From NCBI GenBank assembly GCA_040004075.1, contig JBDUBP010000275.1, positions 1 to 41,770 on the forward strand: a stretch of DNA of 41,770 nt, read 5' to 3'. Shown in pieces: positions 11,578 to 41,770 of the stretch (positions within the stretch are counted from its first letter, which is position 1; every line of letters begins with the position of its first letter). Source of the DNA: Acidobacteriota bacterium (GTDB lineage Bacteria; Acidobacteriota; Thermoanaerobaculia; UBA5066; Gp7-AA6). The notes beneath the pieces are model-generated. The model saw only the letters and a list, made by a program, of their open reading frames with translations, was not told where the DNA came from and searched no databases. The position numbers and the translations under genes were made by a program.

Positions 11578-11653
11578 GAGTTGAGAGTTCAGAGTTAAGA
11601 GTAAAAGCCCGCAAAAGATCGTCTTTTGACTCTCCACTCTCGACTCTCAACTT
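11578..11653. repeat. Inverted pair of heptamer arrays (GAGTWNA)n ... (ACTCTCN)n with inner hairpin
   Basis: Left arm 11578-11605; CAAAAGA-TCG-TCTTTTG hairpin at 11612-11628; right arm 11629-11653. Confidence 0.85.
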
Positions 11654-11654
11654 C

Positions 11655-12629
11655 CTAAAACAGATACGCCAGCGCGAATCCCACCTGCGCGGCCATCATC
11701 AGCAGGTACATGTGGGTCCAGGCCGGATGGTTTTCCGTTCGCGCCAGCTCATCGGGGTCCCGCAGGAGCAGGTAGGCGGCCCAGGCGCCCCAGAGAGCGA
11801 GACCGATTCCGAGCGCTGTCAGCAGGACACGGTTTCCCGTCAGGAGCGCGCCCGTTCCGTGAGGGCCGGACGGCCAGGCGAAGACGGGAATGAGAAGCCA
11901 GGGCAGGATGAAGAACGGGGCGATGATGCGTGCCGCGCGGCGGACGCCGAACCGAATGGGAAGAGTGATGCATCCGTGAGCGCGGTCGCCCTCCATGTCC
12001 GAGAAGTCCTTGGTCGACATCGCGCCGAGCAGGAACAGGGCGAAGATTCCCCCGATGGCCCAGGCTTCGAGCGCCGCGACGCTCGCGACGAACGCCCATC
12101 CCGCCACCTTGAGCAAGCCTCCCCTCGGAATCGCAATCGTCACGTTCGCCGCGAGCCAGTGCCGCTTGGTCCTGCCGAATGCGGGGAACGAATACACGAG
12201 CGTCGCGAGGGCGCCGACGCCATAGAGGAAGAAGGCGGCGTGCAGCGGGAGGGGGGCGGCGAAACGCTCGGAGAGCCGGCTGTAGGGAAACGGCACGACG
12301 ATCCACGTCGGAAGAATCGCCAGGCCATAGAGCGCTCCCGCGGCCTGCCACGCGCGGCGGATCGTGATTTCTCCGGTGACCAGCGGCCTGTTCGGCTTGT
12401 TGCGCCGATCGATTTCGAGGTCGGCAATCTGATTGACGATGTTCGAGGCGGCGTTCAGCGCCGACGCGCACAGAGAGCCGATCGCGACGGTCAGCACGAC
12501 CGCCCACGTGACCCGCCGCGCGGGATCGGGATTGTGCGCCGAGCCGAACGCGCACACCGCGCCCGAAACGATCCCGAGGAGCGGCGGCAGAAGCGTAAAC
12601 GGCCGCGCGAGCCGGAGATATCGCTTCAA
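11655..12629 (-). CDS. UbiA-superfamily prenyltransferase (DGGGP synthase / homogentisate prenyltransferase-like motifs)
   Basis: LARPFT, NQIADLEIDRRNKPNRPLVTG (NxxxDxxxD) and KDFSDMEGD..G..TLP; multiple TM helices; TTG start. Confidence 0.9.
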   Translation of the reverse strand: MKRYLRLARPFTLLPPLLGIVSGAVCAFGSAHNPDPARRVTWAVVLTVAIGSLCASALNAASNIVNQIADLEIDRRNKPNRPLVTGEITIRRAWQAAGALYGLAILPTWIVVPFPYSRLSERFAAPLPLHAAFFLYGVGALATLVYSFPAFGRTKRHWLAANVTIAIPRGGLLKVAGWAFVASVAALEAWAIGGIFALFLLGAMSTKDFSDMEGDRAHGCITLPIRFGVRRAARIIAPFFILPWLLIPVFAWPSGPHGTGALLTGNRVLLTALGIGLALWGAWAAYLLLRDPDELARTENHPAWTHMYLLMMAAQVGFALAYLF

Positions 12630-27538: not shown

Positions 27539-27660
27539 AGTTGAGAGTTCAGAGTTGAGAGTCGAGAGTTACGTCAAGGCGTCGAGGTTGAACATTTCAG
27601 CAAACGAGTTCGGACTCTGAACTCTGAACTCTCGACTCTCAACTCTCAACTCTCAACTCT
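27539..27660. repeat. Inverted pair of heptamer arrays between convergent genes
   Basis: AGTTGAG-type arm at 27539-27570 and ACTCTCA-type arm at 27613-27660; includes the stop of the Dsb gene. Confidence 0.9.
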
Positions 27661-28795
27661 TCCCGAAAATCGACTTGAGCTTCGGGAAAAGCGTGCGCAG
27701 GAACTCTTCCATCACCTTGTCCTCGATCCAGGTGATCTCGGTCCCGTCGATGAAGTACGTCGGAGTGGAATTGACGCCCAGCCGGTAGCCCTCTTCGATC
27801 TCGTGCCGCACGCGCGAGAAGCTCCTCTCCTGCAGGTAGCAGGCGAGGAGATCCGCCGAGGAGATTCCTTCCGCGCCCGCGGTCGTCACCGCGAGCTCGT
27901 CGATCCCTGAGACCGTCATGCTCTCCTGCCGCGCGTAGACCTGCTCCTTGAAGCGAAAGAACGGCGCGGCTCCCGCGGACTTGAAGATGCAGTCGCCGGC
28001 GGAGGCCGCCTTCATCGCCCAGATGTGCCCGAACCACAGGGGGAAGAACTTGTAGTGGCGCCGCGCGTTGACGATCCCCGCGTTGGCTTCGAGGAGCCTG
28101 TCGAACTGGAGGCCGCGCATCTTGCAATACCCGCACTCCATGTCCGCGAATTCGACGATGTTGACGGCCGCCTCGGGCTTTCCGGTCGCGCGCGCCGCGG
28201 AGAGGTCGATGTGCCGGCGCCGCTCCTCGCGCGGATCGCCGCGGAAATCCCACAAGACGCCCTGCAGGAATTTCGTGCCGTCGGCGGAAACGTACCCGGG
28301 GAAACGGACGGGCCCGTATCCGGTCTCGACCGCCACGTTCACGCCTTTGTAGGGAGGGGTGTCCCGCTCGGGCGCGAGCTGCGGAGTCACCTTCGTCCGG
28401 AAGACCGCCGAGATCTTCTCTCCCACCCACGAGAGGTCGGCGGCGGATCGGATCGGCCGAGGCGCCGGGTTCGCCACGGAGTCCCCTTCGAAGAACCACT
28501 TGCCGTCGTCGGAGACGTAGTACAGGCGGTCGACGTTCAACTTCTCGTAGCGGCCCTTCCGCACGATCTTGTAGCCCTGCATCCCCGGGAGACGCTCGGC
28601 CGACTTCGTCACCGCGATGTGGCTCTCGGGGTCCCAGGAGAGAAATCGGAGCGCAAAGGTCTGCAGCTGCGCCTCGACGCCTGCCGCCGGCTCCGGGGCG
28701 CCGGCGGGACGGGCGGCAGCCTTTTTGGGCGCCGCGGCCGCGACCGCTCCGATGGCCGCCGCGATGAGTGCGGCCCCGACGATTCTCTTGTTCAT
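27653..28795 (-). CDS. Exported DsbA/DsbC-like thiol-disulfide oxidoreductase
   Basis: Start reassigned to ATG 28795 (GAGGAG RBS). Signal peptide; EFADMECGYC; GVNSTPTYFIDG cis-Pro loop; two DsbC_N-like segments. Confidence 0.9.
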   Translation of the reverse strand: MNKRIVGAALIAAAIGAVAAAAPKKAAARPAGAPEPAAGVEAQLQTFALRFLSWDPESHIAVTKSAERLPGMQGYKIVRKGRYEKLNVDRLYYVSDDGKWFFEGDSVANPAPRPIRSAADLSWVGEKISAVFRTKVTPQLAPERDTPPYKGVNVAVETGYGPVRFPGYVSADGTKFLQGVLWDFRGDPREERRRHIDLSAARATGKPEAAVNIVEFADMECGYCKMRGLQFDRLLEANAGIVNARRHYKFFPLWFGHIWAMKAASAGDCIFKSAGAAPFFRFKEQVYARQESMTVSGIDELAVTTAGAEGISSADLLACYLQERSFSRVRHEIEEGYRLGVNSTPTYFIDGTEITWIEDKVMEEFLRTLFPKLKSIFGKS

Positions 28796-28803
28796 GTCTC
28801 TCC

Positions 28804-30999
28804 TCAAGATCGGGGACGCGCGCCCCCGCGGACGACCCGGAGCGATTCGATCACTCCGGGCTGGTTGGCATTCATGGCGAGAGAACGCTCGAAGAGGCGA
28901 ACCGCTTCCTCGGTGTCTCCCAGGCACGTGTGAAAGAGGCCCAGGGCATTCAGAGTCTCTATGTCGCGCGTGGCGGGCGCAAACTGATTCAAGGCCTCGA
29001 GCGCGCCCTTGCAGTCGCGGGACTGGAACCGGGCCAGAGCCGCTTCCCGGGCGACCGGTTCGCTGGCAGGGAGCTGGCGCAGCGCCCTTTCCGCGACGGC
29101 GCGCGCTTCACGGGGCTTGCCGCGCCTCTCGTAATCCTGGATCCACTGGCGGACCGTGCCGGGGGGGTCCGCGTGCCCCGCCGCGAGCGAGCGGAAGAGC
29201 CACTCCTGCGCGTCGGAGTCTTTCCCCTCCGTGCGGTCGAGCACCGCCAGGTTGAACATCGGCGAATGATAGTCGGGACGAAGCTCGAGCGCCTTCCCGA
29301 ACGCGGCGCGCGCCGCCGGCAGGTCGCGCTCGGAGTCCCGTTCGTACAGCCCGAGGTTGTTCCAGGCGCCCTCGGTTCGCCCGGGCAGCGCCCCGCCCGG
29401 CGCCGCCAGCGGACGCGTCTCCGAACCGGACAGGTACCCGAGAGCGAGAAGTTTTTTCGCGTACTCGGACGCCTGAGCCGCCGACATTTCCTGAGCCTCG
29501 ACCCGCCGAACCGGGACGTTTCGCGTGGCTTCCCGGGGCAGGATTTTCAAATCCGAGAACGCCGCCGAGATCGCGCGCCCCGGCATCTGTCGGTCCGCCG
29601 CTACCCCGAGGAGCGCGAGAACCGTTGGAGCGGCGTCGAACATCGACGGCTTCAGGGCGGATTTCCCGGGTAAGACGCGCTCGCCCCAGGCCGCGAAAAC
29701 GCCGTCGAGCCGGTGCCAGAACGCCGCCGTGCTCCAGTTCAATGAGGAGCGCTCGCAGGGGCGGTCCGTTCCCCATTTGAACCCGTGGTCCGACTGCATC
29801 AGGAGGGTCCCGTGATCTTCCTTGGCGCGACGCATCCATTGGCCCAGCATCCGGTCGATCACCGCGTAGTACTCGTCGACGGCGCGCCCGTACCGCGCAA
29901 AATCCGCCTCGGGAGTGCAGGAAAGGCGCGGCGGCGCATCGGACCCGAAGACGTGGCCGATTTCGTCCGTCCCCTCGATGTACAGCATCATCAGGTCCGG
30001 CAGATTGCGGTCGTAGAGGTCGCGAGCCGCGCGATGGGAGACCCGCGTCGCTCCGAGAATTCGAGACAGCGCGACGATCGGGTTTTCCATGCCGGCCCCG
30101 CTCGCCAGCGCCTGCTCGATCTCGCCCTGGGGCACGTCCACGAAGCGCGCGAGGTCCGCCGCCGCGACCCGCCCGTCGCGCGCGATGACCTGCGCCACGC
30201 CGGCCTCGAGCGCCGCGGGATAGGCCACCCCGGAGAGCGGGAGCCTGTCGTAGAGGATCGGGCTCGCATGATCGGTCAGGAAAAATCCGTTCACCTGTTC
30301 CGCCGGATGCGTGGCCCACCAGCCGACGACCCCCACCTTCTTTCCCGCCTCCGACGCGATGTTCCAGACCGCCGGCACGCGGCGGGAGCGTCCCGAGATC
30401 GGAACCTTCTGCCCGGTCTTGGGGTCCACCTCTTGAAAATCCAGGACTCCGTGAACTTTGGGCGATACGCCCGTGGCAATCGTGGTCCAGACGATCGGGG
30501 AAAGAATCGGGATGAAGCTCGTGATGCGCGTGGAGTATCCGGTCCCGACCAGTCGCGTCCAATTGGGCATCTTTCCCTCGGATGAAAGCCGGTCGAGGAT
30601 CTCCCAATCGAGCCCGTCCAGGCCGAGCCAGATCACCGGATGCGAGGAGCCGTCGGGCCGCCGATTGCGTGTCGCGACGTCGGAGCTCTCGACCGCTGGC
30701 GACTCGGCGGCGCGCTCTGCGGGAGCCGCGACAGAGGCCGGTCGAAGCCCCGCCGACCTTTCACCGCGACCGCACGAGAGAAGCACTCCGAACGCCGCGG
30801 CTAGCCCGACGATCGCCGCCGCGCGCCCGCGAGGGTTGCTCGACCGTTGTCTGGCGCGAGTCACGGAGGGCGGCCGCCTCTCTTGAGCAGTTTTCGCTCG
30901 CCGGAGATCAGGTCCGGAGCGCGAAAGAGGGGCATCCACCCTGGCGGAGGAGGCCGCGGAGACGCCAGAGAAGAGCGCCAGCGCGAGCAACCTTCGCAC
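28804..30999 (-). CDS. Alkaline phosphatase-superfamily (NPP/phosphodiesterase-like) lipoprotein with C-terminal TPRs
   Basis: LGLDGLD, SPIVWTTIATG, TDEIGH, SDHGF, LLALGYL linker, TPRs, lipobox LLSC. Start is either GTG 30999 or GTG 30864. Confidence 0.88.
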   Translation of the reverse strand: MRRLLALALFSGVSAASSARVDAPLSRSGPDLRRAKTAQERRPPSVTRARQRSSNPRGRAAAIVGLAAAFGVLLSCGRGERSAGLRPASVAAPAERAAESPAVESSDVATRNRRPDGSSHPVIWLGLDGLDWEILDRLSSEGKMPNWTRLVGTGYSTRITSFIPILSPIVWTTIATGVSPKVHGVLDFQEVDPKTGQKVPISGRSRRVPAVWNIASEAGKKVGVVGWWATHPAEQVNGFFLTDHASPILYDRLPLSGVAYPAALEAGVAQVIARDGRVAAADLARFVDVPQGEIEQALASGAGMENPIVALSRILGATRVSHRAARDLYDRNLPDLMMLYIEGTDEIGHVFGSDAPPRLSCTPEADFARYGRAVDEYYAVIDRMLGQWMRRAKEDHGTLLMQSDHGFKWGTDRPCERSSLNWSTAAFWHRLDGVFAAWGERVLPGKSALKPSMFDAAPTVLALLGVAADRQMPGRAISAAFSDLKILPREATRNVPVRRVEAQEMSAAQASEYAKKLLALGYLSGSETRPLAAPGGALPGRTEGAWNNLGLYERDSERDLPAARAAFGKALELRPDYHSPMFNLAVLDRTEGKDSDAQEWLFRSLAAGHADPPGTVRQWIQDYERRGKPREARAVAERALRQLPASEPVAREAALARFQSRDCKGALEALNQFAPATRDIETLNALGLFHTCLGDTEEAVRLFERSLAMNANQPGVIESLRVVRGGARPRS

Positions 31000-31005
31000 G
31001 ATGAA

Positions 31006-31014
31006 ACCTTAACA
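31006..31014 (-). promoter_or_regulatory. Putative extended -10 (TGtTAAGGT)
   Basis: 6 nt before GTG 30999, downstream of the receptor terminator. Confidence 0.5.
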
Positions 31015-31149
31015 TGTGGACCCGCGCCCGGATTCCGCGGCGTATGCGGCCGCGCAAAGCGTTCGCTCGCTCGGTGCCCGAGGCTCATCTTTGCGGGCGA
31101 GACTCGGAGACGAAGCGGGAAGATCCGCAATGGATGGGAGAAGTAGCGC

Positions 31150-31176
31150 AAAAACGGCCCCGCTTGCGCGGGGCCC
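31150..31176 (-). terminator. Rho-independent terminator after TonB-dependent receptor 1
   Basis: Minus strand GGCCCCGC-GCAA-GCGGGGCC-GTTTTT. Confidence 0.85.
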
Positions 31177-31201
31177 GGAAAAAGCCGAAATCGCGACCGG
31201 T

Positions 31202-34117
31202 CTAGAAGTGGACGCGCAGGCCCAGTTGCGCTAAGCGCTGCTCACCTTGAAGCGGATCACCCGCGAAGAAGGAGGGCTTGCCAAACGCGGCGGAGCTCAT
31301 GTCGCCGACGTACCCGGCCGGGTTCGTGGAATTGAAGACATTGAAGGCTTCGGCGATCACCTCGACCCCGACATCCTTGGTGAAGAGGAAATCCTTGGAG
31401 AGGCGGATGTCAAATTGCGAGAAGTCGTGCCCGCGTCCAGAGTTGACATGGGTGACTCCGGGAGGCAAATCGATGACAAATCCGTCGTTATTGAGATCCG
31501 TCCCAGCATGGATGTTGTAGGGGGTCGCGGAGCGATAGCGGAAGAAGCCGGAAGCCGTGATTCCCAGCGGCGCCGAATAGACAACGCCGAGCGTGAAGCG
31601 ATGCCGCGCGTCGGTGTTCAGCGGACCGGAGCAGGCATTGCACAGCGGGTCGAGGGGGTTGACCGAGACGTCGCGTCCCCGGCGCAAGTCCGGCTGGTAG
31701 GTGGTGTTGGAGAGACGGAACTCGTCGGCGCCCGAGATCACGTTGCCATTCGTCCTCGACCACGTATAGAAGCCCTGCGCCACGAGCGTGTTGGAGATCC
31801 GCGCCCGCAGTGAAAAGTTGACGCCGTCGTAGTCCGCGAAACCGTTGCCGTACCAAATTCGAAAATTGCCGAAATCGGGAAAACGGCGAGGGTTGCTCTG
31901 CGGCGGAGGATTTCCGACGCGGGGATTCGCGCGGAAACGGAAGGGAAGATTCCGGTAACGGATGAGGACGCCATCGAGCGACGCCGCGAGCCAAGGCGTC
32001 ACTTCCGTGGAAACGCCGAGCGAGGCCTGTCGGGAGAAAGGGGTCTTCAACGTCGGCGACGCGACCTCGTTGGGGGGATTGGAAGCCAAGCCTGAGAGCT
32101 GGTTGGGAGGCAGTGGCTGCCCCGGCTGGAAGAAGCTGCCGTCCACGTTTCGAATGCCGCTGGAGTTGTTGTTGTTGTAGATGACGCCGTAGTTGGACTG
32201 CACGGCCGCCGAGGGGAAGAGGATCGTCGCGTTTGTGTACGGGAAGTCGTAGTAGATCCCCCAGCCGCCGCGCACGAACATCCTCCCGTTACCCGTTACG
32301 TCCCAGGCGAAGCCCAAGCGCGGTCCCCAGTTCTTCTTGTCGTTGGAGAGCACGCCGCCTTTCCCGCCCTGGAAGTCTCGAAGATAATTCTCGTTGTAGC
32401 TGGTTTGTGTCGAGAGCGTCTTCCAGATGGGATTCGATCGCTGGTCCAGGTCGAATCCGGTCCACAGGTCGTAGCGCAATCCCACACTGAGAGTGATGCG
32501 TGGGCCCGGCCGCCAGTCGTCCTGAATGTACACGCTGTACTGGTTTACAGGGGTCGAATCCGTGAAGAGGCCTCCGTTTCGCGTGATGTCGGTGACCGGC
32601 GAGCCGGCGCGATCCTCCTTGAGGGTGAACTGCGGCGCGTCCACGCCCGTCGAGAAGTCGCCGCCCAGCGTCGGCTCGTGGATGACATTGAAGCCCACCT
32701 TGAAGTCGTGCCGCTGTCCGGCGATGTCGCGGCCGAAGCTGACGTCGTCCTTGAACTGGTACTTGATCTGGTGCGTGGACTGCGGTGTGTTGATGTTTTG
32801 ACCGGAATGCACGCCCGAGGGATAGGCGATTGCGAGATTGGTCGAGTCCGACGAAATCGTGTTGTCGAACTTGCTGTACTGGATCACGAACTCGTTGACT
32901 GCGTTGGCGCCCAACTGCGCGGAATGCCCGCCCAGAATCGAGGAGTACTTATTGGCGACTGTGCCGAGGGAATCGGGCGTGGCCTTAGGGCTGGCGCCGT
33001 ACTTGTCGCTGTTCTTCTGGTACCCGAACCGGACCTGGAGGTACTGCGAGGCCGAGAGATTGACAGTCCCCTTGGCCGTGACGAGGTCGTCGGTGAAGGG
33101 AAGCTCGGCCGCTTGACCCTGTACCGCCGGGTAGAGGGGCTGGCTCGTCGCCGAAGGCCGCGTGTCGACCGTGTAGTTGGTCTTGCGGTCCGTGCGCTCG
33201 TAGGCGGCAAAGAAGTGAGCCTTGTCCTGAACGACCGGGCCGCCGAGCGACGCGCCGTACTGGTAGCGGCGGTAGGCCTGCTTGCCACGGCCTGAATTCT
33301 TTTCCGATTCCGTCTCGGAGTTCAGCCCCTTGTCGCGGAAGAAGCCGAAGCCGTTGCCGTGGAAATCGTTGGTTCCGGTCTTTGTGACGACCGTGAGCAC
33401 ACCCCCCGTCGAGCGCCCGTACTCCGCCTTGTACTGCTGCGTCTGGATGTTGAACTCCTGGACGCTGTCGAGCGAGAAGTTCTGCAGCGCCCCTCCGATG
33501 GTGTCGTCGGTATTGTCCCCGCCGTCCGAGACGTAGTTGACGTTGCGGCCGATCCCGCCGTTCAAGGCGACCGTGAGCTGGCCCGGCTTGGTCGGATCCG
33601 TGTTGTAGGCGAGCGACGTCCCGGGCGCGAGTACGGCAACGTTGGCAAACTGGCGTCCGTTCAGGGGAAGACTCTTGAGCTCCTTCTCGGAAACGACCGC
33701 GCCGATCGAGGCTTCGTTCCTCACGAGCGGCGTCTCGGCCGTGACGGTGACGGCGGCCGTTGCCGTCGCGAGCGACATGTTAAAGTTCAGACTGCGCGTC
33801 GTCGCGACGTTCAACTCCACGCCTGTCTGCTCGACTGTCTTGAAGCCCGTGAGCTGCGCGGTGACCATATAGGTGTCGGCGGGGATCGAGGCGAACCGGT
33901 AGGTCCCGTCTCCCACCGTCGTGACGGTGCGCGTGAAGCCCTTAGATGTCGATCTGGCGGTCAGGGCGACGCCCGGAAGCGCCCCTCCCTGCTCGTCGGC
34001 GACGCGTCCCGCGAGCGAAGCACCGGTCGCCTGCGCGGCGGCGGGTTGGGGGATGGAGAGCAGCGCCGCCAGTCCAACCGCGGCGGCGCCACCCAGGATT
34101 GCCGAAAGCTTTCTCAT
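31202..34117 (-). CDS. TonB-dependent receptor, Oar/carboxypeptidase-regulatory-like family
   Basis: GGAGG RBS; signal peptide; GRVADEQGGALPGV; LPLNGRQF; YKAEYGRSTGGV...TKTGTNDFHG; terminal Phe (LRVHF). Confidence 0.95.
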   Translation of the reverse strand: MRKLSAILGGAAAVGLAALLSIPQPAAAQATGASLAGRVADEQGGALPGVALTARSTSKGFTRTVTTVGDGTYRFASIPADTYMVTAQLTGFKTVEQTGVELNVATTRSLNFNMSLATATAAVTVTAETPLVRNEASIGAVVSEKELKSLPLNGRQFANVAVLAPGTSLAYNTDPTKPGQLTVALNGGIGRNVNYVSDGGDNTDDTIGGALQNFSLDSVQEFNIQTQQYKAEYGRSTGGVLTVVTKTGTNDFHGNGFGFFRDKGLNSETESEKNSGRGKQAYRRYQYGASLGGPVVQDKAHFFAAYERTDRKTNYTVDTRPSATSQPLYPAVQGQAAELPFTDDLVTAKGTVNLSASQYLQVRFGYQKNSDKYGASPKATPDSLGTVANKYSSILGGHSAQLGANAVNEFVIQYSKFDNTISSDSTNLAIAYPSGVHSGQNINTPQSTHQIKYQFKDDVSFGRDIAGQRHDFKVGFNVIHEPTLGGDFSTGVDAPQFTLKEDRAGSPVTDITRNGGLFTDSTPVNQYSVYIQDDWRPGPRITLSVGLRYDLWTGFDLDQRSNPIWKTLSTQTSYNENYLRDFQGGKGGVLSNDKKNWGPRLGFAWDVTGNGRMFVRGGWGIYYDFPYTNATILFPSAAVQSNYGVIYNNNNSSGIRNVDGSFFQPGQPLPPNQLSGLASNPPNEVASPTLKTPFSRQASLGVSTEVTPWLAASLDGVLIRYRNLPFRFRANPRVGNPPPQSNPRRFPDFGNFRIWYGNGFADYDGVNFSLRARISNTLVAQGFYTWSRTNGNVISGADEFRLSNTTYQPDLRRGRDVSVNPLDPLCNACSGPLNTDARHRFTLGVVYSAPLGITASGFFRYRSATPYNIHAGTDLNNDGFVIDLPPGVTHVNSGRGHDFSQFDIRLSKDFLFTKDVGVEVIAEAFNVFNSTNPAGYVGDMSSAAFGKPSFFAGDPLQGEQRLAQLGLRVHF

Positions 34118-34184
34118 GGAGTTTCCTCCTCCGTATCAGAATTGCCTGACTTGAATCAAAGAGCGGGGCTTGGGTCTTCCGGCC

Positions 34185-36392
34185 TCACCTCCTTTCAGGC
34201 TGCGAAAGACCGCTGGCGCCCGAGAGCCGGGCGATCAATTGGCGGGCGACGGCGCGCTGCTTCGCGAATCCGGGATCGCCGGCGGCGGCGCGCAGGAAAT
34301 CCCGGTACGCAGCGACGGCAGAGCGGGTCTGTCCCATCGTTTCGAAGGCGATGCCGCGGTTCAACCTCGCCTCGTGGTACTGCGGCGCGAGGACCAGCGC
34401 GCGCTCGAAGTCGGGGATTGCCGCTCCCGGGCGTCCGCACGCGACCTCGAGGGTGCCGAGGCCGTTCCACGCCTCCGCGTAGCGCGGCGCCAGCTCAGTT
34501 GCCCGCCGGTAGGCCCTCTCCGCCTCGTCGAGGCGGCCGAGCTGGCGCAGGACGTTGCCCCGGTTGTTCTGGGCTCGCGCATCTCGCGGATCGAGCTCTG
34601 CGGTGCGGTCGAACTGCGCGAGCGCCTGGAGCGGGTTCCCCTTCCCCGCGAGCGCGATGCCGAGCGCGTTGTGCGCCTCCGGCCGGGAGGAATCGCGCCG
34701 GATCGCCTCCTCAAGGGCCCCACGGGCCTCGTCTCCCTGCCCCGCCTCTTGCAACGTCACCGCGAGATTGTAGCGAGCATCGGGGTCGGTGGGCGCATCA
34801 GCGACGGCGCGGCGGTAAAGCGCGACCGCCCGCGGATAATCCTTTTGGCGCCGGTACGCCTCTGCGAGAAGGCCGCGGAAGACTGAGTTCTTCGGGTCGG
34901 CGGCGATGAGCGGCTCGAGCTTGCGCACGGCTTCTTTCAGGAGCCCGCTCTGAAGCGACCAGTTCGCCTCCTCGAACTTCCGGAAAAGCGGCGCCATCTC
35001 CTTCGGATCCTTCCGGGTGCCGCCGGCGGAAGAGGCCGAGCCGGCCGGGCCGCCGGAGATGTAACCGAGACTCGCAAGCTTCGCGGCGGTCTCGTCGCGG
35101 CCGTACGCCGCAGCGGCGGCGACGCTCCCTTCTTGGAACTTCGCGAGCCGTGTCTCCAGGTCCGCGCGCCGCGCCCCTTCGGCCAGCAGGTTCGAGGCCT
35201 CGCCGGGGTCGCGCGAGAGATCGTAGAGCTCCGCCCGCGGCGCCGCGATGTACTTCAACCTCCCGCGCCGCACTGCCGAGAGACCACTCCACCCGAAGGT
35301 CCGCGGGTACTCCGTCTCGGCGTAGAGCTCGGTCTCGACCGGCTCGCTTCCGTTCTTGATCGCAGAGGAGAGGTCCCGCCCGTCGAAGGGTCGGACACCC
35401 TTTCCACCGCTCGCCCCGGCCAGGGGCTTTCCGAGCATCCCCGCCAGCGTCGGCGCGAGATCGGCGAGGCCGACAGGTGCGCCGACTGCCTTTCCGGCCG
35501 GGAGCCCGGGGCCGCGCAAAATCAGAGGCACCCGCAGCGTCGGCTCGTAGAGGAGCAGACCGTGTGTGAGCTCGCCATGCTCGCCGAGCGCCTCGCCATG
35601 GTCGGCGGTGACGGCGACGACGGTCGAATCGGCGAGCCCGCTGCGATCCAGAAAGTCGAGCAACTTCGCAATTTGCGCATCGACGAACGCGATCTCACCG
35701 TCGTAGGGGACCGCCTTGTGCCGGCTCGCATAGGGCTCGGGAGGCGCGTAAGGCGCATGCGCGTCGTAGAAGTGCACCCAGGCGAAGAAAGGCCGTCCGC
35801 CGCTCCCCCCCTGGGTTTTCTCGAGCCAGGCGACCGCGCGGTCCGCGACCTGCGAAGCCGGGCGCTCCGCGTCGAGCGAGCCGGGTGCGTTCGGGTCCCG
35901 TTCGATCTCGTCGTCGTAGACGTCGAACCCACGCCCAAGGCCAAACCGATGGTCGAGCACGAAGGAGCCGACGAACGCGCCGGTCGAATAGCCCGCCGCG
36001 GACAGCAGCGTGGCGAGTGTCGGGCGGTCGTCCGGGAAGCAACCGGCGCCATTGTTGCGCAGCCCATGGTGCGGAGGCGTGAGGCCGGAGAGGATCGTCG
36101 CGTGCGAAGCGAGAGTCAGCGGAACCGCGGACTGCGCGTGGTCGAAGCGGATGCCCTCATGCGCAAGGCGGTCGAGCGCTGGCGTCTCGGCGGAGCGGTA
36201 GCCGTAGGCGCCCACGTGATCGGCGCGCACCGTGTCGATCGTGACAAGGAGGAGGCTGCGAGGGTGCGACCAGACGTTTTCGCGGGGGCCGCAGCTCCAC
36301 AGAGCGAGACCGACCGCTGCAACGACGAAGGCAGACACGATGCGTCCGGGCGACGAAACCGAGCCGCGTGCCCGTTCCATGGATCCCTGCAT
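34185..36392 (-). CDS. Sulfatase-like hydrolase/transferase lipoprotein with C-terminal TPRs
   Basis: Lipobox LWSC; TIDTVRADH, PLTLASHATILSG, YDAHAPY, ADHGE..GEHGE..HG, LASLGY, TPRs. Start ATG 36392 or 36380. Confidence 0.92.
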   Translation of the reverse strand: MQGSMERARGSVSSPGRIVSAFVVAAVGLALWSCGPRENVWSHPRSLLLVTIDTVRADHVGAYGYRSAETPALDRLAHEGIRFDHAQSAVPLTLASHATILSGLTPPHHGLRNNGAGCFPDDRPTLATLLSAAGYSTGAFVGSFVLDHRFGLGRGFDVYDDEIERDPNAPGSLDAERPASQVADRAVAWLEKTQGGSGGRPFFAWVHFYDAHAPYAPPEPYASRHKAVPYDGEIAFVDAQIAKLLDFLDRSGLADSTVVAVTADHGEALGEHGELTHGLLLYEPTLRVPLILRGPGLPAGKAVGAPVGLADLAPTLAGMLGKPLAGASGGKGVRPFDGRDLSSAIKNGSEPVETELYAETEYPRTFGWSGLSAVRRGRLKYIAAPRAELYDLSRDPGEASNLLAEGARRADLETRLAKFQEGSVAAAAAYGRDETAAKLASLGYISGGPAGSASSAGGTRKDPKEMAPLFRKFEEANWSLQSGLLKEAVRKLEPLIAADPKNSVFRGLLAEAYRRQKDYPRAVALYRRAVADAPTDPDARYNLAVTLQEAGQGDEARGALEEAIRRDSSRPEAHNALGIALAGKGNPLQALAQFDRTAELDPRDARAQNNRGNVLRQLGRLDEAERAYRRATELAPRYAEAWNGLGTLEVACGRPGAAIPDFERALVLAPQYHEARLNRGIAFETMGQTRSAVAAYRDFLRAAAGDPGFAKQRAVARQLIARLSGASGLSQPERR

Positions 36393-36401
36393 TACGCGGG
36401 A

Positions 36402-36407
36402 AGTTTA
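36402..36407 (-). promoter_or_regulatory. Putative -10 box (TAAACT), near-leaderless
   Basis: TAAACT 9 nt before ATG 36392. Confidence 0.5.
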
Positions 36408-36504
36408 CTCAAAAGAATCGGCGGGCGCCGCGGGGCCGGCTGGGAGGCGACGCGACGAAGGCGATGCTGTTCGCATCGGGGAGGAGCGTCAACGATACGG
36501 CCGG

Positions 36505-37587
36505 TCAGCCCTGCTTCTTGAGAAGCGCTTTTGCCCTCTCCAGAGTATCCAGGGCCTGCGTGTCACGCTGCAGGACATTCTCGCCGTAACCACGCTTGGT
36601 GACGAATTCGAAGTCCACCTGGAGGTAGGGGATCCCCCTGGGGAGAAGCTCGCGGCGGTAGTGCCAGACCTCGCGCCAGTTGGATGCGGCGTCGTTGGCT
36701 TTCGTTCCCGGCCCCGTGACCCGGTCGATTCGCGCGGCGCGCTGCGACGTTGTGCCTCCGGATGCCGACGCCGCCCTGACGTCCGAGGGGCGATACTGAA
36801 AGAGCGCCGAAGAATCCGTGGCGTCCTCCCCGGAGGTGAGAGGCTTTCGGCCGACATAGGTCGGCGGCCCGAGCAGGACGAACACCATCCCCCGGTCGGT
36901 CAAACTCCCCCGGATCTCCCCCTGAGTGAAGTGCGCGTCCGCGAAGGCCACCCGCTTCTCGAGCTCCTCGCGAAACTCGTTCTCGGGCGTTTCCGGCTTG
37001 GGGTCTCGCGACTTCCAGAAGCTCGTGATGAATTCGGAGCGAGAGACAGGATCCGGCAGGCGGGTGAAATCCCGCCGTTCGTCAGGAGTCATGAGAAACC
37101 GGGCTGGCCCTTCGACCCAGTTTTCTCCGAGCGAACCTTCGGTGGCGTGATCCGGTGTGGGAAACGCGGCGTAGGCGAGAGCGAGCGAGCCCTTCTCCTC
37201 CAGCCGGCCTTCAACGTGCCCCAGGCTCTTTCGCGCTTCTTCGAAGACGGCAATGACCTTCTTCGGGTAGATCGCGGGATCGAGAGCCGCGGTCGGATGG
37301 GAAGCGAGATACGTTTCGAAACGCGAACGCGCCTCTGCGCCCTTCCCCAGGGCGGCATAACACGCCCCCTCGTAGAAAGCGACGGCTGCTTCCAGAGTGG
37401 GGCGAAGCTGCTTCGAACCGGGCTCCAGGCTTTCGGCCTCCAGCCGAGAAAGGGTCTGCAAAGCCTTATCGTAAGACCCGAGTCGAAACTCCTCCTTCGC
37501 CCGCGAAAAAAGCCGGTTCAGAGACGGCTCGTCGGCGGCCAGGGCGAGGAAAATCGCGAGAACGGGGAAAAAGGGAAGTAATGGCAT
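36505..37587 (-). CDS. GWxTD domain-containing exported protein with N-terminal TPR-like helices
   Basis: Start ATG 37587 gives a signal peptide. FLMTPDER, FITSFWKSRDP.PETPENEFREE..KRVAFAD..F, GSLTDRGMVFVLLGPP, EVWHY. Confidence 0.9.
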   Translation of the reverse strand: MPLLPFFPVLAIFLALAADEPSLNRLFSRAKEEFRLGSYDKALQTLSRLEAESLEPGSKQLRPTLEAAVAFYEGACYAALGKGAEARSRFETYLASHPTAALDPAIYPKKVIAVFEEARKSLGHVEGRLEEKGSLALAYAAFPTPDHATEGSLGENWVEGPARFLMTPDERRDFTRLPDPVSRSEFITSFWKSRDPKPETPENEFREELEKRVAFADAHFTQGEIRGSLTDRGMVFVLLGPPTYVGRKPLTSGEDATDSSALFQYRPSDVRAASASGGTTSQRAARIDRVTGPGTKANDAASNWREVWHYRRELLPRGIPYLQVDFEFVTKRGYGENVLQRDTQALDTLERAKALLKKQG

Positions 37588-37642
37588 GCCCGGTATCCTG
37601 GACTCTGTCTCCCGCAATTCTATCGAAGAGAACACCCCCGGG

Positions 37643-37675
37643 AAAAGAAGGGGGGGCTGGACGCCCCCCCTCTTC
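37643..37675 (-). terminator. Rho-independent terminator after TonB-dependent receptor 2
   Basis: Minus strand GGGGGGGC-GTCCA-GCCCCCCC-TTCTTTT. Confidence 0.85.
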
Positions 37676-37684
37676 GAAGAGATA

Positions 37685-40600
37685 TCAGAATGAAACCTTC
37701 ACGCTCGCCCGGACTTCCCGGGGCGACTGTCGCAACTGTGCAGCGCCCCAGTTCTGCTGGGGCAACGGGTCTCCCAGGTTCAACCTCCCGAGGCGCTCGA
37801 AGTTCTTCTGGCTGTATTCCGGGGTGTTGGCCGGCGTGCAGCCTCCCGCGTTCTCGCAGAACGTACCATCCGGGTTGAAGCGCTCGTCGATCTTCAGGAC
37901 ACCCTGCCGGTTCAACGCGTTGAAAACGTAGATCGCCGGCGTGATCGACACCGGACCGGCTTTGATGGTGTATCCCAGCGAAAGGTTCGCTTCGTACTCG
38001 TACGGCAGACGGGCGCCGGAATAAATGGCGCTGTCCGATCCCCGCTGCACGAGGTGGAGCAGATCGGGGTAGAAGCTGTTGTAGAAGCCGGCGCGCGAAA
38101 CCGGCGCTCCGCTTCGGAGGTAGGTGCCGAAGCCAACGCTCAGGCCGAAGGGTGTGGTGTAGACCGCATCGAGCCGAAGCTGGTGCGGCCGATCCAGGAA
38201 CAGCCGGCCGTCGGCGTTCTTCAAGAAAAGCGGGTAGTCGTAATCGGCGTTGATGCCGGGGTCGGTCTGGCCGGAGGCGACCCGGACCGCTCCGTCGTAG
38301 TTTCCCCTCAACGTCGAATAGAGGTAGGAGAACTGGACCCAGGCGTTCTGCGTGAAGGTTTTGCGGGCTGTCAGCTCGATCCCCTTGAAGGTGCGCGAGG
38401 CCTTCGGCACCTGGGGAGCGCCGCTCGCGAAACACTCTCCCGCCGTGGGGGAAGTGAATTGGGACTCGGCGCTGTCGCACCAGCCGAAGGTGCTATTGGG
38501 ACCGCCGTCCCAGAATCCGCCGGAGCCGGGGTTGATGATCGCGCACGTGGAATTCTGATTGACCGGGTCCCCGTCGTCGAGGTCGCACCGGTCCTCAATG
38601 ACGCGGCCCAGTTTGCGGTATATCCCCTTCAATCCCACCGCGAAGGTGGGCGCCAGCGCCATCTCCGCCCCGAGGTTGAACTCATCCTGGTACTGTCCCT
38701 TGATGCCCGGTTCCGTCGGCTCGCTGGTCGCCCCCTGAAACAAGCTCTTACGCTTCGGAGGCCCGGTGCCGGGTCCGCCCGGCGTGGTGGAGATCGTCGA
38801 GTAGTTAAAGGTCTGTGTCTGGAATTGGTCGCCGTAATTTCGGACATTCAGGTCGTTGGGGAGGTTGTAATAGAAACGGCCGTAGGAGCCGAACAGCTTC
38901 GTCGAGCCGTCTCCCTTCCAATCGTAGACGAGTCCGACGCGGGGCTGCCACTCCTTGTTGAGGTCGATGGTCGTTTCATTCCTTTTGTTCTTGACCTTTT
39001 CGATGTCGAGCCGCACTCCCGCGTTGATCGAGAAACGAGGCGCGACCCGCCAGGTGTCCTGGACGAAGCCCGCATAAGCGTTCGTGGGAGGCGAGGAAAT
39101 ACTCTTGTCAAGAATCGTGAAGGAGCCGAGCGTGGGGGCGTAAAAGTCGTGCTGGTAGTAGACCCGCTTCGGCTCGCCGTAGAAGTTGGTAATGTTCACA
39201 CCCTCGCCCACCGGGCAGAAGCTCGAGGATGCGGAATTGCTGCTGCAAGTCCGGACGCGGACGCGCTGGCCGCCCGTGAAGAATGAAACGTCCGTGGTGA
39301 CGCTCTTGGCGTAATCGCCCCCGAGCCTGAACTCATGATTTCCAAGGTAAGCCGTGAACGAGCCGATGTACTCGTCTCGCTTACCCGTGTTGTTGAGCCT
39401 GTAACCCGGGACCTGGCCGAAGCCCTGAAGTTGGGGGAAGTTCGGATAGTCTTGAGGATGCGTCCGGTCCTGGATTCCTATGATCGACGGGTTAGTCGGC
39501 TGGAAGAAGTAGCGGTCGTTGTGTTTCGCGTACTGGAGCGTCAGCACGCCCACGGAACCAAAGAGCTGGTTGAAACGCCCGGCATAGTCTTCCGAGCCGA
39601 TGTCCCGGCGCCCCAGGGAGTCGTCCAGGTTGGTGCTGATGGGAGTGAAGATCGCGCCGTCATGGTGTTCCGGATCCCGGAAATAGGTCCCGACCAGGGT
39701 CGAGCCCTGCGCGATGTTCCAGGTCATCTTGCCCGAGAGAAGGTTGTATCGGATGTTTTCGGTGAAATCCTTGTTGTAGACGCCGAAGAATTGGGACGAA
39801 GACGACTTGGGAACGCGGTCGCGGTCGCCGTCCGAGTAGTTGTACGCCGTGAAGAACCAGAGGCGGTCTTTGATGACGTAACCGCCGAGGTCCGCCCCGT
39901 AATCGGCCGTCTTGACATTGTCAAAAACGCCGAATCGCGCGGCGACCCCGCCGTCGTCCAAGAGAGCGTCATCTGTCCGGAAGTCCTGCCTGGCGCGGAA
40001 GCTCTTCCCGGCGTAGTTGGCGAAGACGTCGCCATGAAACTCGTTGCCGCCGGACTTGGTGATGACGTTGATGATGCCGCCGGTGGCCCGGCCATACTCA
40101 GCCTGGTAGCCGCCGGTCTTGACCTCGACCTCCTGGATGAACTCACTGTTGATGATCTTGCCCTGCACCCCCCGGACGACGCTGTTCGTATTGACACCGT
40201 CGATGACGAACGTGTTTTCGGCGGAGGTGGAGCCGTAGACCGAGAGGGCCAAACCGCGCCCCTGGCGATCGCCGGTGTCTTCCTGCACCCCCGGCTGAAG
40301 TTTCACGACCGCGGCGTAGTTGCGGCCCAGCGGAAGCTTCTCCATGACCTTCGCGCTGTAGTTCGAGCCAGTTGTCGTGCTGGATATGTCTACGATCGGA
40401 GCCTCGCCGCTGACGATGACCGCTTCCTGGGCGGTGATCCTCAGGGTCATGTTGACCGTCGCGGTCGAGCCGAGCGTTATAAATGCCGTCTTCTCGCCGG
40501 CCGTGAAGCCGGAGAGCGCCGCCTTGACCTTATAGGTCCCCGGAGGAACCGAGGCGATGTGGAAATTGCCGCTGTTCGCGGTCACCCCCACGCGCGTGCC

Positions 40601-40765
40601 CTGCAGCGCGGGGCTCGTGGCTTCGACGGTGACGCCGGGAAGGGGTTTACCATCCGCATCGGTGATCGTCCCCTGGAGGTCCCCCGTCGTCTGCGCGAAG
40701 ACGGTAGGGACCGCCAGGAGAAGGCAAACGGACACGATGAGTGTCAGTCGGTATCCAGGCTTCAT
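37685..40765 (-). CDS. TonB-dependent receptor, Oar-like, with eight paired Cys
   Basis: Start reassigned to ATG 40765 (AAGGAGG RBS). Signal peptide ending AQ; GTITDADGKPLPGV; LPLGRNY; GGYQAEYGRATGGIINVITKSGGNEFHG; terminal Phe (VKVSF). Confidence 0.95.
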   Translation of the reverse strand: MKPGYRLTLIVSVCLLLAVPTVFAQTTGDLQGTITDADGKPLPGVTVEATSPALQGTRVGVTANSGNFHIASVPPGTYKVKAALSGFTAGEKTAFITLGSTATVNMTLRITAQEAVIVSGEAPIVDISSTTTGSNYSAKVMEKLPLGRNYAAVVKLQPGVQEDTGDRQGRGLALSVYGSTSAENTFVIDGVNTNSVVRGVQGKIINSEFIQEVEVKTGGYQAEYGRATGGIINVITKSGGNEFHGDVFANYAGKSFRARQDFRTDDALLDDGGVAARFGVFDNVKTADYGADLGGYVIKDRLWFFTAYNYSDGDRDRVPKSSSSQFFGVYNKDFTENIRYNLLSGKMTWNIAQGSTLVGTYFRDPEHHDGAIFTPISTNLDDSLGRRDIGSEDYAGRFNQLFGSVGVLTLQYAKHNDRYFFQPTNPSIIGIQDRTHPQDYPNFPQLQGFGQVPGYRLNNTGKRDEYIGSFTAYLGNHEFRLGGDYAKSVTTDVSFFTGGQRVRVRTCSSNSASSSFCPVGEGVNITNFYGEPKRVYYQHDFYAPTLGSFTILDKSISSPPTNAYAGFVQDTWRVAPRFSINAGVRLDIEKVKNKRNETTIDLNKEWQPRVGLVYDWKGDGSTKLFGSYGRFYYNLPNDLNVRNYGDQFQTQTFNYSTISTTPGGPGTGPPKRKSLFQGATSEPTEPGIKGQYQDEFNLGAEMALAPTFAVGLKGIYRKLGRVIEDRCDLDDGDPVNQNSTCAIINPGSGGFWDGGPNSTFGWCDSAESQFTSPTAGECFASGAPQVPKASRTFKGIELTARKTFTQNAWVQFSYLYSTLRGNYDGAVRVASGQTDPGINADYDYPLFLKNADGRLFLDRPHQLRLDAVYTTPFGLSVGFGTYLRSGAPVSRAGFYNSFYPDLLHLVQRGSDSAIYSGARLPYEYEANLSLGYTIKAGPVSITPAIYVFNALNRQGVLKIDERFNPDGTFCENAGGCTPANTPEYSQKNFERLGRLNLGDPLPQQNWGAAQLRQSPREVRASVKVSF

Positions 40766-40819
40766 CCGTGCCTCCTTAACGAAAAAGAGAGCCAAAAAAG
40801 AAAACCTCGAAATATTCAG

Positions 40820-40836
40820 AGCAATGTCATTGCCAG
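40820..40836 (-). promoter_or_regulatory. Sigma-54 (-24/-12) promoter
   Basis: Minus strand CTGGCAATGACATTGCT has exact GG-N10-GC spacing and matches TGGCA...TTGCW; about 55 nt upstream of the receptor ATG. Confidence 0.75.
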
Positions 40837-41107
40837 AAAGGCCAACTCCGTGGCTGAGCCTAAGTGCCTCCGGGGAAAAGAACAAGCGAAAAATCCCGAC
40901 GATGTCAGAGGCCGTCTAAAACACAGCTTCTTGAAGATTCATCCAACTTTTTGAACTCAACGCGGTCAGGTGCTGACTGACACGGCATTCCCCGAGTCGC
41001 GGAGAACCGCAGCTGATCAACCCTCCCATGGAGCGGATCGGCGAGCGCGAACAGCAAGTCCCGCGCCGAAGGATCCCCGGCCACCGAGAAGGCGGACCCC
41101 TTCGAGC

Positions 41108-41770
41108 TCACCGCTCTTTCGCCGAGCGGCCGCGCCAGGCGGCGGCTCCCCGCGGGTCGCCGATGGAATCGAGGGTCTTCGCCGCGAGCAACGCCGAGTC
41201 CCGGCCGGGGTTGGCCGCATACATCTTCTCGAGCAGGCCGTAGACATCCCTGACCGGGCGGTGCTGGACCGCATAGAGAATGGCAAGCCGCGCGTACGCC
41301 TCGGAGTTGGCCGGAAAGGATCGAATCTCTTCCTGGAAGGCCTGTTGCGCCTCTGCATAGCGCCCGAGACGCGCGAGAGCGTCCCCACGCAGGAACTGGA
41401 GGTTGCCGGGCGGCTGCTGCTCCTTTTCCCGGAGCCTCTTCAACGCTAAATCGAGAAGAGCCAGAGCTTGCAGCGGCTGGTCGCGCCGCAGGCGAACCTC
41501 GGCGATCAAGACGGCTCCGTCCGCCTCGACGCCGGAAGCCCTGGCCCCAAGAGAGACCTCGCGCTCGACGGCATCCAGATCGTTCCGGGCCAGGGCCACC
41601 CGCGCGAGCACCTCGTGGGCCTCGGCGGGCGAGTCCCGCATCGCGAGCCCGGCATTAAGCTCCGCCTCCTTCAGCTCGCCGAGCGCGAGGCTGACGCGGG
41701 CGAGTGCCAGCGAGATCGGACCCGCCGCCGACGGCGAGATCCGGATCGCCTCCTTGTAGGCCTCGGCCGC
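41108..41770 (-). CDS. TPR-repeat C-terminus of a larger protein (5' part outside window)
   Basis: The frame is open to the window edge (AAEAYKEAIRISP...); TPRs such as RGDALARLGRYAEAQQAF. Confidence 0.85.
   Translation of the reverse strand, partial: AAEAYKEAIRISPSAAGPISLALARVSLALGELKEAELNAGLAMRDSPAEAHEVLARVALARNDLDAVEREVSLGARASGVEADGAVLIAEVRLRRDQPLQALALLDLALKRLREKEQQPPGNLQFLRGDALARLGRYAEAQQAFQEEIRSFPANSEAYARLAILYAVQHRPVRDVYGLLEKMYAANPGRDSALLAAKTLDSIGDPRGAAAWRGRSAKER

Follow-up and report, generated by a model that had tools for sequence, protein, structure and literature searches.

TonB-dependent transporters of the Oar subclass are defined by a CarboxypepD_reg N-terminal extension, and, according to the text available from PMC6434023, the only characterised protein of this type, Oar of Myxococcus xanthus, is needed for secretion of PopC and exports rather than imports. 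We have analysed a locus from an uncultured soil-type acidobacterium of the class Thermoanaerobaculia, in which two receptors resemble Oar in having this extension, followed by a plug (matched in one of the two only) and a large barrel, with TonB dependence expected from the family. The genes here have phosphoesterase-TPR lipoproteins as partners, together with a GWxTD protein, and lie behind a sigma-54 promoter, all of them points of difference from the Oar system and none of them mentioned for Oar in the available text of PMC6434023. A second comparison is with the SusC/SusD polysaccharide utilisation loci, where a TonB-dependent barrel likewise stands beside lipoproteins rich in TPR-like helices and substrate-processing enzymes, and where modular cassettes are likewise multiplied per genome. 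Here, however, enzyme and TPR domain form a single fusion protein, the enzymes resemble phosphoesterases and regulation is of the sigma-54 type, whereas polysaccharide utilisation loci of Bacteroidota are regulated by hybrid two-component or ECF systems. A Pfam scan of the 34 ORFs in the window (the whole stretch of DNA analysed, 41,770 nucleotides) revealed no SusD, glycoside hydrolase, inner-membrane transporter or sulfatase maturase. This confirms the original prediction, made from the DNA itself, as to these absences and, given that neither SusD nor a glycoside hydrolase is present, as to this not being a standard polysaccharide utilisation locus.

The window is an entire contig (C278), ending at position 41770. 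We label the locus genes G1 to G7 and their convergent neighbour G0; C-numbers denote contigs of the same genome, three-digit G-numbers (G0xx) the genomes of relatives, and L-numbers (L0xx) the loci compared. The ORF list and Pfam place all seven genes on the minus strand, as had been predicted, and their products are a pair of TonB-dependent transporters of Oar type, three alkaline-phosphatase-superfamily/TPR lipoproteins (two of them complete, one represented by its tail), one GWxTD protein and one that is DsbA-like. Signal peptides and lipoboxes were read by eye from the translations; on this reading the six complete genes all carry the expected export signals, Sec-type in G1, G3, G5 and G6 and a lipobox in G2 and G4. 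Acyl-CoA carboxylase genes, YceG, RuvX, thiolase and LptD surround the locus and are syntenic in relatives too, so conserved order alone partly reflects vertical inheritance.

Our leading, though still tentative, reading is that this is one stretch of a larger sigma-54-controlled envelope locus built of repeated receptor-enzyme cassettes, which together would form a TonB-powered module scavenging phosphoester-bearing organic matter. Each cassette would comprise an Oar-subclass transporter and a lipoprotein in which an alkaline-phosphatase-superfamily phosphoesterase is fused to a TPR domain, the phosphoesterase being of one of two types: sulfatase-fold, with Thr as nucleophile, or PafA/NPP-like, with Ser in that role. 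A GWxTD protein would follow the sigma-54-driven receptor, and one or two DsbA-like oxidoreductases would end the row.

The receptors are G6 (37685..40765, minus strand; 1026 aa, counted from the ATG behind AAGGAGG) and G3 (31202..34117, minus strand), the partner of G4. In Pfam the CarboxypepD_reg extension (PF13620) is matched at 5.8e-17 in G6 and 8.7e-17 in G3, and both proteins match OMP_b-brl_4 and TonB_dep_Rec_b-barrel over a large TonB-dependent beta-barrel; Plug (PF07715) is matched by G6 (2.7e-9), with no G3 match at E 0.01. Of the four Cys pairs in G6, one is invariant among 9 aligned receptors and each of the others occurs in 6-8 of them; the closer orthologues have the full set. 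Each receptor was expected to have a strong Shine-Dalgarno sequence, and such sequences were found, AAGGAGG before G6 and GGAGGAGG before G3. Each was also expected to have its own terminator, and here the placement stands: one terminator-like hairpin lies directly 3' of the G6 stop codon (37651..37670, minus strand; six G-C pairs, then CTTCTTTTCC) and a strong one 3' of the G3 stop codon (31156..31175, minus strand; eight G-C pairs, loop GCAA, then GTTTTTGCGC). The region as a whole has no more such hairpins than shuffled sequence (10 versus 11.5), so it is only where they lie that carries weight.

Upstream of G6, about 55 nt ahead of its start, is the sigma-54 (-24/-12) promoter motif TGGCAATGACATTGCT (40820..40835, minus strand) that the original prediction had reported for one receptor. 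The motif count in the window is not above chance, and genome-wide there are 14 exact matches against about 7 estimated from base composition. Among 14 orthologous receptor genes, nevertheless, 12 have the exact form TGGCA-N6-TTGCT in their upstream 200 nt, as against 1.3% of control stretches, and judged by this conservation the motif before G6 is real. It is also found ahead of Oar-type genes on C155 and C68. Sigma-54 activators are encoded elsewhere in this genome, on C68, where one adjoins the Oar-type gene, and on C158; Pfam identified none among the 34 window ORFs.

The product of G4 (34185..36392, minus strand) is a lipoprotein (lipobox LWSC in the translation) with a sulfatase fold (Pfam Sulfatase, PF00884, 2.1e-45) and a C-terminal TPR domain, also matched in Pfam. 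Its likeness to S1 sulfatases extends to the fold and, within the catalytic domain, to the C-terminal half, but it differs in having Thr at the nucleophile position in place of the formylglycine Cys/Ser, and His in place of the motif Arg. These substitutions, seen where T-L-A-S-H of G4 aligns with C-S-P-S-R of 6pt4_B, mean that sulfate-ester chemistry is not expected, and the sulfo-ester substrates included in the original prediction are unlikely because the formylglycine motif C/S-x-P-x-R is absent. The motif and lipobox of G4 are retained in its paralogues, all five of those checked having DTxR[AS]D and, as their core, Thr-Leu-Pro-[Ser/Ala]-His. Were this a locus for the utilisation of sulfated glycans, equipped with true sulfatases, the Pfam match of G4 would be explained, as would the fact that its closest solved structures are carrageenan and choline sulfatases; yet with C/S-x-P-x-R replaced in G4 and paralogues alike, and with maturase, SusD and glycoside hydrolase all missing from the window, this is extremely improbable.

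Phosphoethanolamine and phosphoglycerol transferases (EptA, LtaS, YejM) typically combine a sulfatase fold with a Thr nucleophile, and G4 gives weak matches to the NCBIfam YejM and EptA models. Both points would suit a role in envelope remodelling, in which the Thr- and Ser-type enzymes would be transferases or hydrolases acting on the cell's own lipopolysaccharide, exopolysaccharide or phospholipid head groups, and the receptors and Dsb proteins would be envelope components under shared control, not a route of transport for what the enzymes act on; LptD and dTDP-rhamnose (rml) genes also share the window. We nonetheless regard such a role as improbable. Known transferases of the EptA/LtaS/YejM type have N-terminal membrane domains, which the lipoproteins G2 and G4 lack, unrelated housekeeping genes lie between the locus and both LptD and the rml genes, which share the region through plain synteny, and the specific pairing of enzyme and receptor would be left unexplained.

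The second complete enzyme, G2 (28804..30861, minus strand), is a lipoprotein with a PafA/NPP-like domain (Pfam Phosphodiest, 4.6e-29) and a C-terminal TPR domain (Pfam TPR). Its longest ORF extends to 30999, and the true start is about 46 codons inside this, orthologues being 659-689 aa long; the lipobox, LLSC, is kept in five of the six orthologues inspected. In alignment with the PafA chains 5tj3/5too (E 2.5e-7; good in the first ~110 residues only), the likeness takes in the nucleophile segment, where a Ser of G2 stands opposite PafA Thr79, and the metal ligands D, DxxxH and DH, to which LGLDG, TDEIGH and SDHG are aligned, the last two in low-scoring segments. The differences from PafA/NPP enzymes are low identity, Ser rather than Thr as putative nucleophile, and the additional 190-residue TPR domain and lipoprotein anchor, and G2 is not a PafA equivalog (NCBIfam alk_phos_PafA, 23 bits where the cut-off is 650). 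Of 41 relatives, 37 have the family; in G006 the greater part of the gene is gone, so the enzyme is dispensable there. On the residues at their nucleophile positions, G2 and G4 are both non-canonical members of the alkaline phosphatase superfamily, which agrees with the original prediction.

The third enzyme gene, G7 (41108..41770, minus strand), is cut by the contig end, and what is left is the C-terminal TPR part of a sulfatase-like/TPR gene (TPR families in Pfam). Contig C155 carries a third sigma-54 receptor and an N-terminal sulfatase fragment. In G010, a genome of the same genus, a single gene matches both this fragment (92%) and G7 (95%), and has a C155-type receptor on one side and a receptor-GWxTD pair on the other. 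The ends of C278 and C155 share no overlap longer than 10 bases, and we join the contigs on the gene order in G010, by which the locus probably continues on C155 with the third sigma-54 receptor, an extension that the original prediction did not anticipate.

The GWxTD protein G5 (36505..37587, minus strand; 360 aa, the short GWxTD form) is exported and scores 85.1 bits with TIGR04514 (cut-off 28) and 30.6 bits with PF20094 (cut-off 26.9), the GWxTD domain being C-terminal. In its predicted model (pLDDT 69.7) residues 20-125 are TPR-like (Z ~11), so that TPRs, originally claimed for at least three proteins of the locus, are indeed present and the count becomes four. The full-length model had structure matches to this TPR-like head only, and the C-terminal domain modelled alone (pLDDT 57.5) had a best structure match of Z 3.8; a profile search of solved structures gave no match below E 0.02, and an ESM Atlas look-up returned GWxTD clusters only. 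As regards the C-terminal fold, these results indicate neither novelty nor the absence of a known fold. Clustering at 50% identity divides the family into no fewer than 5,426 clusters, and it occurs in 50 of 61 Acidobacteriota genomes versus 0 of 14 controls. Of 20 GWxTD loci sampled, 7 have a strong Oar-type barrel within 8 kb. At a second locus GWxTD paralogues stand in arrays, with as many as eight copies; array loci with annotated flanks are mostly without an adjoining receptor, L033 and L038 being those that have one.

At the other end of the row, G1 (27653..28795, minus strand) encodes an exported DsbA-like thioredoxin-fold protein (Pfam Thioredoxin_4 and DSBA) with an N-terminal domain of ~200 aa and CGYC at residues 221-224, the CxxC being kept in orthologues. 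Its convergent neighbour G0 (25679..27535, plus strand; Pfam TonB_C and a weak Pkinase match) is laid out as a kinase-like domain, a membrane segment, a Pro-rich linker and a TonB C-terminal domain, and its translation appears to have LHG at the expected HRD and GFG at the expected DFG. It could possibly serve the locus as energiser or sensor. The same neighbour is found in L005, G018, G006 and G014, and its absence from the orthologous position in L003, L009, L013 and L020 rules it out as a core part.

Comparison with relatives shows the row to be a composite, which the original prediction had not foreseen. Their core order is receptor, GWxTD, thioredoxin-like, PafA/NPP-like-TPR and Dsb, the gene between GWxTD and G2 being a thioredoxin-fold protein with a CERC motif. 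A G6-like receptor (orthologues 47-90% identical) stands directly before GWxTD in 17 of 39 loci, G2 is downstream in 15, and G1 follows G2 in 11. The receptor-GWxTD pair has been duplicated as a unit in L005, L012, L020 and G014. In the present genome the G4-G3 pair occupies the site that holds the thioredoxin-like gene in most relatives; the pair is at the same site in G018 and at other sites in G010 and G036, and its genes are adjacent also in G016 and G032. From these positions, G4-G3 is best described as a movable two-gene cassette inserted in a lineage-conserved core of receptor, GWxTD, PafA-like-TPR and Dsb genes.

High-copy envelope families might also come to be neighbours by accident and be held together by inherited gene order, in which case the row would be no functional unit at all. 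Matches to CarboxypepD_reg number 30-41 per genome, Oar-type genes occur in tens and sulfatase-like/TPR genes in 1-9 copies, the housekeeping flanks are equally syntenic, and receptor-less GWxTD arrays occur, all of which would fit such an origin. However, five near-complete relatives together have 24 sulfatase-like/TPR genes, and an Oar-type gene is no more than 500 bp away for 8 of them, 3.5 kb for 16 and 8 kb for 20, while direct adjacency is expected for about 2-3%, so that the observed value is some tenfold higher. A single receptor may be followed by two to five enzyme genes in tandem, and in the present genome three of six distinct sulfatase-like genes (G4, one on C76 and the split C155/G7 gene) abut an Oar-type gene. 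Since the pairing exceeds copy-number expectation, the outcome that the original prediction had named as fatal to it, co-localisation no greater than copy numbers would give, is not what is found. With G4-G3 travelling between sites as a unit, receptor-GWxTD pairs duplicating together and a conserved promoter ahead of the first gene, the gene arrangement indicates that the grouping is not chance, and an accidental assembly, already disfavoured, is highly doubtful.

In the scavenging reading, a nutrient signal would act through a sigma-54 activator encoded outside the locus, and the receptors would be made in excess over the accessory proteins, an excess read from hairpin placement only. The lipoprotein enzymes, working either in the periplasm or at the outer membrane, would cut organic matter joined by phosphoester links, and the TonB-powered barrels would move substrate or products through the outer membrane. 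The TPR domains and the GWxTD protein may hold cargo or dock the enzyme to the receptor (a complex prediction for G4 residues 36-735 with the G3 N-terminal extension, residues 29-135, scored 0.01 against a mark of 0.32), and the Dsb proteins may make the disulfides, four in number, in the loops of the G6-type receptor. Transport direction, cargo, protein contacts, operon structure and the role of Dsb are each parts of the model that we infer. Pfam identified neither an inner-membrane transporter nor a periplasmic binding protein in the locus among the 34 window ORFs and, the activator being likewise missing from the locus, the uptake pathway is incomplete as seen.

This absence of import partners also suits the main rival reading, which reverses the direction of transport: the Oar-type barrel would be a TonB-powered exit for the adjoining enzyme-TPR lipoprotein, and perhaps for GWxTD, serving surface placement or release. 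In the text available from PMC6434023 the Oar subclass is the sole type of TonB-dependent transporter shown to be required for protein secretion. The tight one-to-one pairing of receptor and exported-enzyme genes would fit such a route. The candidate cargoes here, however, have Sec or lipoprotein signals, whereas PopC is reportedly a soluble protease without a signal peptide, and two to five tandem enzyme genes per receptor fit shared substrate processing equally well or better. We consider export unlikely, and its most specific form rather improbable, namely that Acidobacteriota Oar-type barrels are dedicated energy-driven exporters, each placing its adjoining phosphoesterase-TPR lipoprotein on the surface with GWxTD as chaperone or adaptor. 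If true, this would amount to a widespread TonB-powered route of protein and lipoprotein secretion, of which Oar/PopC of Myxococcus would be the only studied example.

A literature search, judged by titles and the starts of abstracts, returned no paper on this gene set, and GWxTD was the subject of no paper in the literature searched. Few groups of soil bacteria are as abundant as the Acidobacteriota, in whose genomes genes for Oar-type TonB-dependent transporters are present by the tens. The substitutions in G4 and its paralogues serve as a warning that the many "sulfatase" annotations in Acidobacteriota are wrong as to the chemistry. For the transporters, the recurrent pairing of barrel, phosphoesterase-TPR lipoprotein and GWxTD protein offers a testable choice between organic phosphorus scavenging and enzyme secretion.

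The interval 27653-41770 is filled by seven co-directional genes on the minus strand, and the gene row of the original prediction, with its stated domain content, was recovered in full. G1 (27653-28795) encodes a DsbA-like thioredoxin-fold protein with a CGYC motif, G2 (28804-30861) a Phosphodiest domain with TPRs, G4 (34185-36392) a sulfatase-fold domain with TPRs, and G5 (36505-37587) a GWxTD protein; G3 (31202-34117) and G6 (37685-40765) are Oar-type TonB-dependent transporters, and G7 (41108-41770) is a TPR tail truncated by the contig end. Lipoboxes, read off the translations as were signal peptides, are LLSC in G2 and LWSC in G4; that of G2 is kept in five of six orthologues inspected, and orthologue lengths place the true G2 start about 46 codons inside the longest ORF. 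The host genome is metagenome-assembled and 74% complete, and the window is the whole of its 41.8-kb contig C278, which ends at 41770. Apart from the plus-strand gene G0 (25679-27535), which is convergent with G1 here and in locus L005 and genomes G018, G006 and G014, the remainder of the window consists of housekeeping genes (cytochrome b/Rieske, LptD, dTDP-rhamnose genes, CoA transferase, thiolase, RuvX, YceG). G0 encodes a protein in which a kinase-like domain is joined to a membrane segment, a linker rich in Pro and Ala, and a TonB C-terminal domain. By eye, LHG and GFG replace the expected HRD and DFG, so G0 is probably a pseudokinase; it could couple a TonB-type contact with the receptors to cytoplasmic signalling.

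The locus appears to continue on a second contig of the same genome, C155 (positions 1-8500, minus strand). It holds genes for carboxyltransferase and biotin carboxylase, one sigma-54 motif (exact, at 4053) and a third gene of the Oar type; a sulfatase-like lipoprotein gene runs off the contig start, leaving its N-terminal 337 residues. G7 is a C-terminal tail of the matching kind, entering from the end of C278. As there is no overlap between the ends of the two contigs, we infer the join from the same-genus genome G010, where one contig carries a C155-type receptor (95%), then a single gene matching both the C155 fragment (92%) and G7 (95%), followed by a receptor, GWxTD, a thioredoxin-like gene and G2 (87%). 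Given this matching order, the locus most probably reads: carboxylase genes, a first sigma-54 receptor, a first enzyme-TPR gene (C155 fragment plus G7), a second sigma-54 receptor (G6), GWxTD, a second enzyme-TPR gene (G4), a third receptor (G3), the PafA-like-TPR gene (G2) and Dsb (G1).

Parts of this order recur among relatives. At 39 loci with a G5 relative, tblastn places a G6-like receptor directly upstream in 17, G2 downstream in 15 and G1 after G2 in 11; between GWxTD and G2, these relatives carry a second thioredoxin-fold protein (Pfam) with a CERC motif. Close relatives of G3 or G4 are absent from all 39; the only such receptor matches are weak ones, at 26% identity in L033 and as a 24-bit fragment in L024. 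All relatives found with the GWxTD protein are labelled Thermoanaerobaculia or Acidobacteriota except L037 (CAWBAL010000009.1), which has GWxTD, thioredoxin-like, G2 and G1 relatives under the label 'uncultured Actinomycetota'; it contains several frame breaks, and mis-binning and long-read indel errors are likely. In another same-genus locus (G006, C226:1-5260), G3 is 98% identical and all that lies between G3 and G1 is a G2 remnant of about 80 residues, which suggests loss of the PafA-like-TPR gene in this genome.

Gene order alone could simply be inherited, since the flanking housekeeping genes (acyl-CoA carboxylase genes upstream; YceG, RuvX, thiolase and LptD downstream) are equally syntenic, and on that ground the genes might form no functional unit at all. 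Support for function comes from units that move or duplicate together. The receptor-GWxTD pair is doubled as a unit in L005, L012, L020 and G014. The G4-G3 pair occupies the same slot of the same seven-gene order in G018, from another genus (84% and 82% identity). It is found as a pair elsewhere in the genomes G010 and G036, and its two genes are neighbours in G016 and G032. The families also co-localise well beyond what their copy numbers predict, as the original prediction required. Of 41 same-order genomes, 40 carry sulfatase-like/TPR genes, at one to nine copies each, and 37 of 41 relatives have the G2 family. In five near-complete genomes, among the matches listed, 8 of 24 sulfatase-like/TPR copies are separated by no more than 500 bp from an Oar-type gene, against roughly 2-3% expected for direct adjacency; 16 of 24 lie within 3.5 kb and 20 of 24 within 8 kb. 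These distances, from the 24 copies to the listed CarboxypepD_reg N-domains of long frames, are upper bounds, because the comparison leaves out 21 matches of one search and 31 of the other; receptor spans are approximate, and the related genomes are non-independent samples. The host genome itself has six distinct sulfatase-like genes, of which three are direct neighbours of an Oar-type gene. Five genomes flagged as unpublished (G003, G013, G024, G030, G087) enter only the pooled tallies (G4-G3 adjacency, sulfatase-like/TPR, G2 family, GWxTD), and no individual statement depends on them. We give very little weight to the reading that there is no functional unit. The locus is a real and recurrent, undescribed variant of TonB-dependent-transporter-centred loci.

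Of 61 Acidobacteriota genomes sampled, 50 contain the GWxTD family; none of 14 control genomes does. A full scan yielded 5,426 clusters (E up to 0.001); a literature word search found no publication using the word. The G5 model (pLDDT 69.7) predicts a TPR-like head at residues 20-125; for the C-terminal domain, neither a usable model nor a match was obtained. At 20 phylum-wide loci (best match per genome, 8 kb on each side, profiles built by us), 7 have a strong Oar-type barrel and 12 any Oar or CarboxypepD_reg-like match. Tandem paralogue arrays of up to eight copies occupy a second conserved site (L031, L034, L038 and contig C32 of the host genome), flanked by cytochrome c7/Fe-S oxidoreductase genes on one side and by a DedA/VTT gene and ribonucleotide reductase on the other; the arrayed copies are 38-53% identical to G5. 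Most of the arrays with annotated flanks have no adjoining receptor, the exceptions being L033 and L038.

The predicted strong ribosome-binding sites are present upstream of both G3 and G6, and a hairpin with a T-run lies immediately 3' of each; as the regional hairpin number is no higher than in shuffles (10 versus 11.5), it is their placement alone that is suggestive. About 55 nt upstream of the G6 start stands the motif TGGCAATGACATTGCT. By count, sigma-54 motifs in the window are unremarkable (19 matches with up to two mismatches, 24 expected), and it is conservation that bears the proposed motif out: in 200 nt upstream of each of 14 orthologous receptor genes, an exact TGGCA-N6-TTGCT is found in 12, against 1.3% of 3000 control stretches. 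The other two are second copies at loci with two tandem receptor-GWxTD pairs. Three of the 14 exact matches in the host genome lie upstream of Oar-type genes (C278, C155, C68); on C68 a sigma-54 response-regulator activator adjoins the receptor, and none was found in the window.

The wider interpretation held in part: grouping beyond chance and the conserved sigma-54 motif favour it, and the sulfatase chemistry does not. G4 aligns with solved sulfatases, with T-L-A-S-H in place of C-x-P-x-R (chain 6pt4_B), and all five paralogues checked in the host genome share DTxR[AS]D as well as a Thr-Leu-Pro-[Ser/Ala]-His core. In the phosphoryl-transfer enzymes of this fold (EptA, LtaS, YejM), a threonine at the formylglycine position acts as the nucleophile. 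G2 aligns with the alkaline phosphatase PafA, a serine standing opposite Thr79; the metal ligands D, DxxxH and DH can be aligned as well, DxxxH and DH in segments of low score, and similarity to the PafA equivalog is remote (23 bits, cut-off 650). Judged by these residues, both are phosphoesterase-like enzymes, not sulfatases, and would therefore need no maturase; the proposed sulfo-ester substrates become unlikely, and a true sulfatase locus is barely credible. In L033 a formylglycine-generating-enzyme-like gene (11246-12193; FGE-sulfatase, 1e-73) directly follows the GWxTD array beside an Oar-type gene, which is odd, as this group's sulfatase-like proteins do not have the target motif. Among NCBIfam models, YejM and EptA match G4 weakly. 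That the locus serves envelope remodelling seems very unlikely.

The receptors differ in their cysteines. G3 has a single pair and G6 four (507/517, 727/741, 763/778, 970/976), all present in closer orthologues; 727/741 is invariant across nine aligned receptors, and the other three are kept in six to eight. The main alternative is that the barrels export the enzymes encoded next to them: the one Oar protein studied so far is required for secretion of PopC (PMC6434023), an analogy that may speak for export, which we nevertheless consider unlikely. Our tentative preference, held at somewhat less than even confidence, is for a sigma-54-induced scavenging module. Phosphoesterase-TPR lipoproteins would process organic matter with phosphoester links, and outer-membrane passage of substrate or products would be the task of the Oar-type barrels. 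The TPR and GWxTD parts may bind cargo or dock partners, the Dsb proteins would form the four cysteine pairs of the G6-type receptor, and the hairpins after the receptor genes may let receptors outnumber the accessory proteins.
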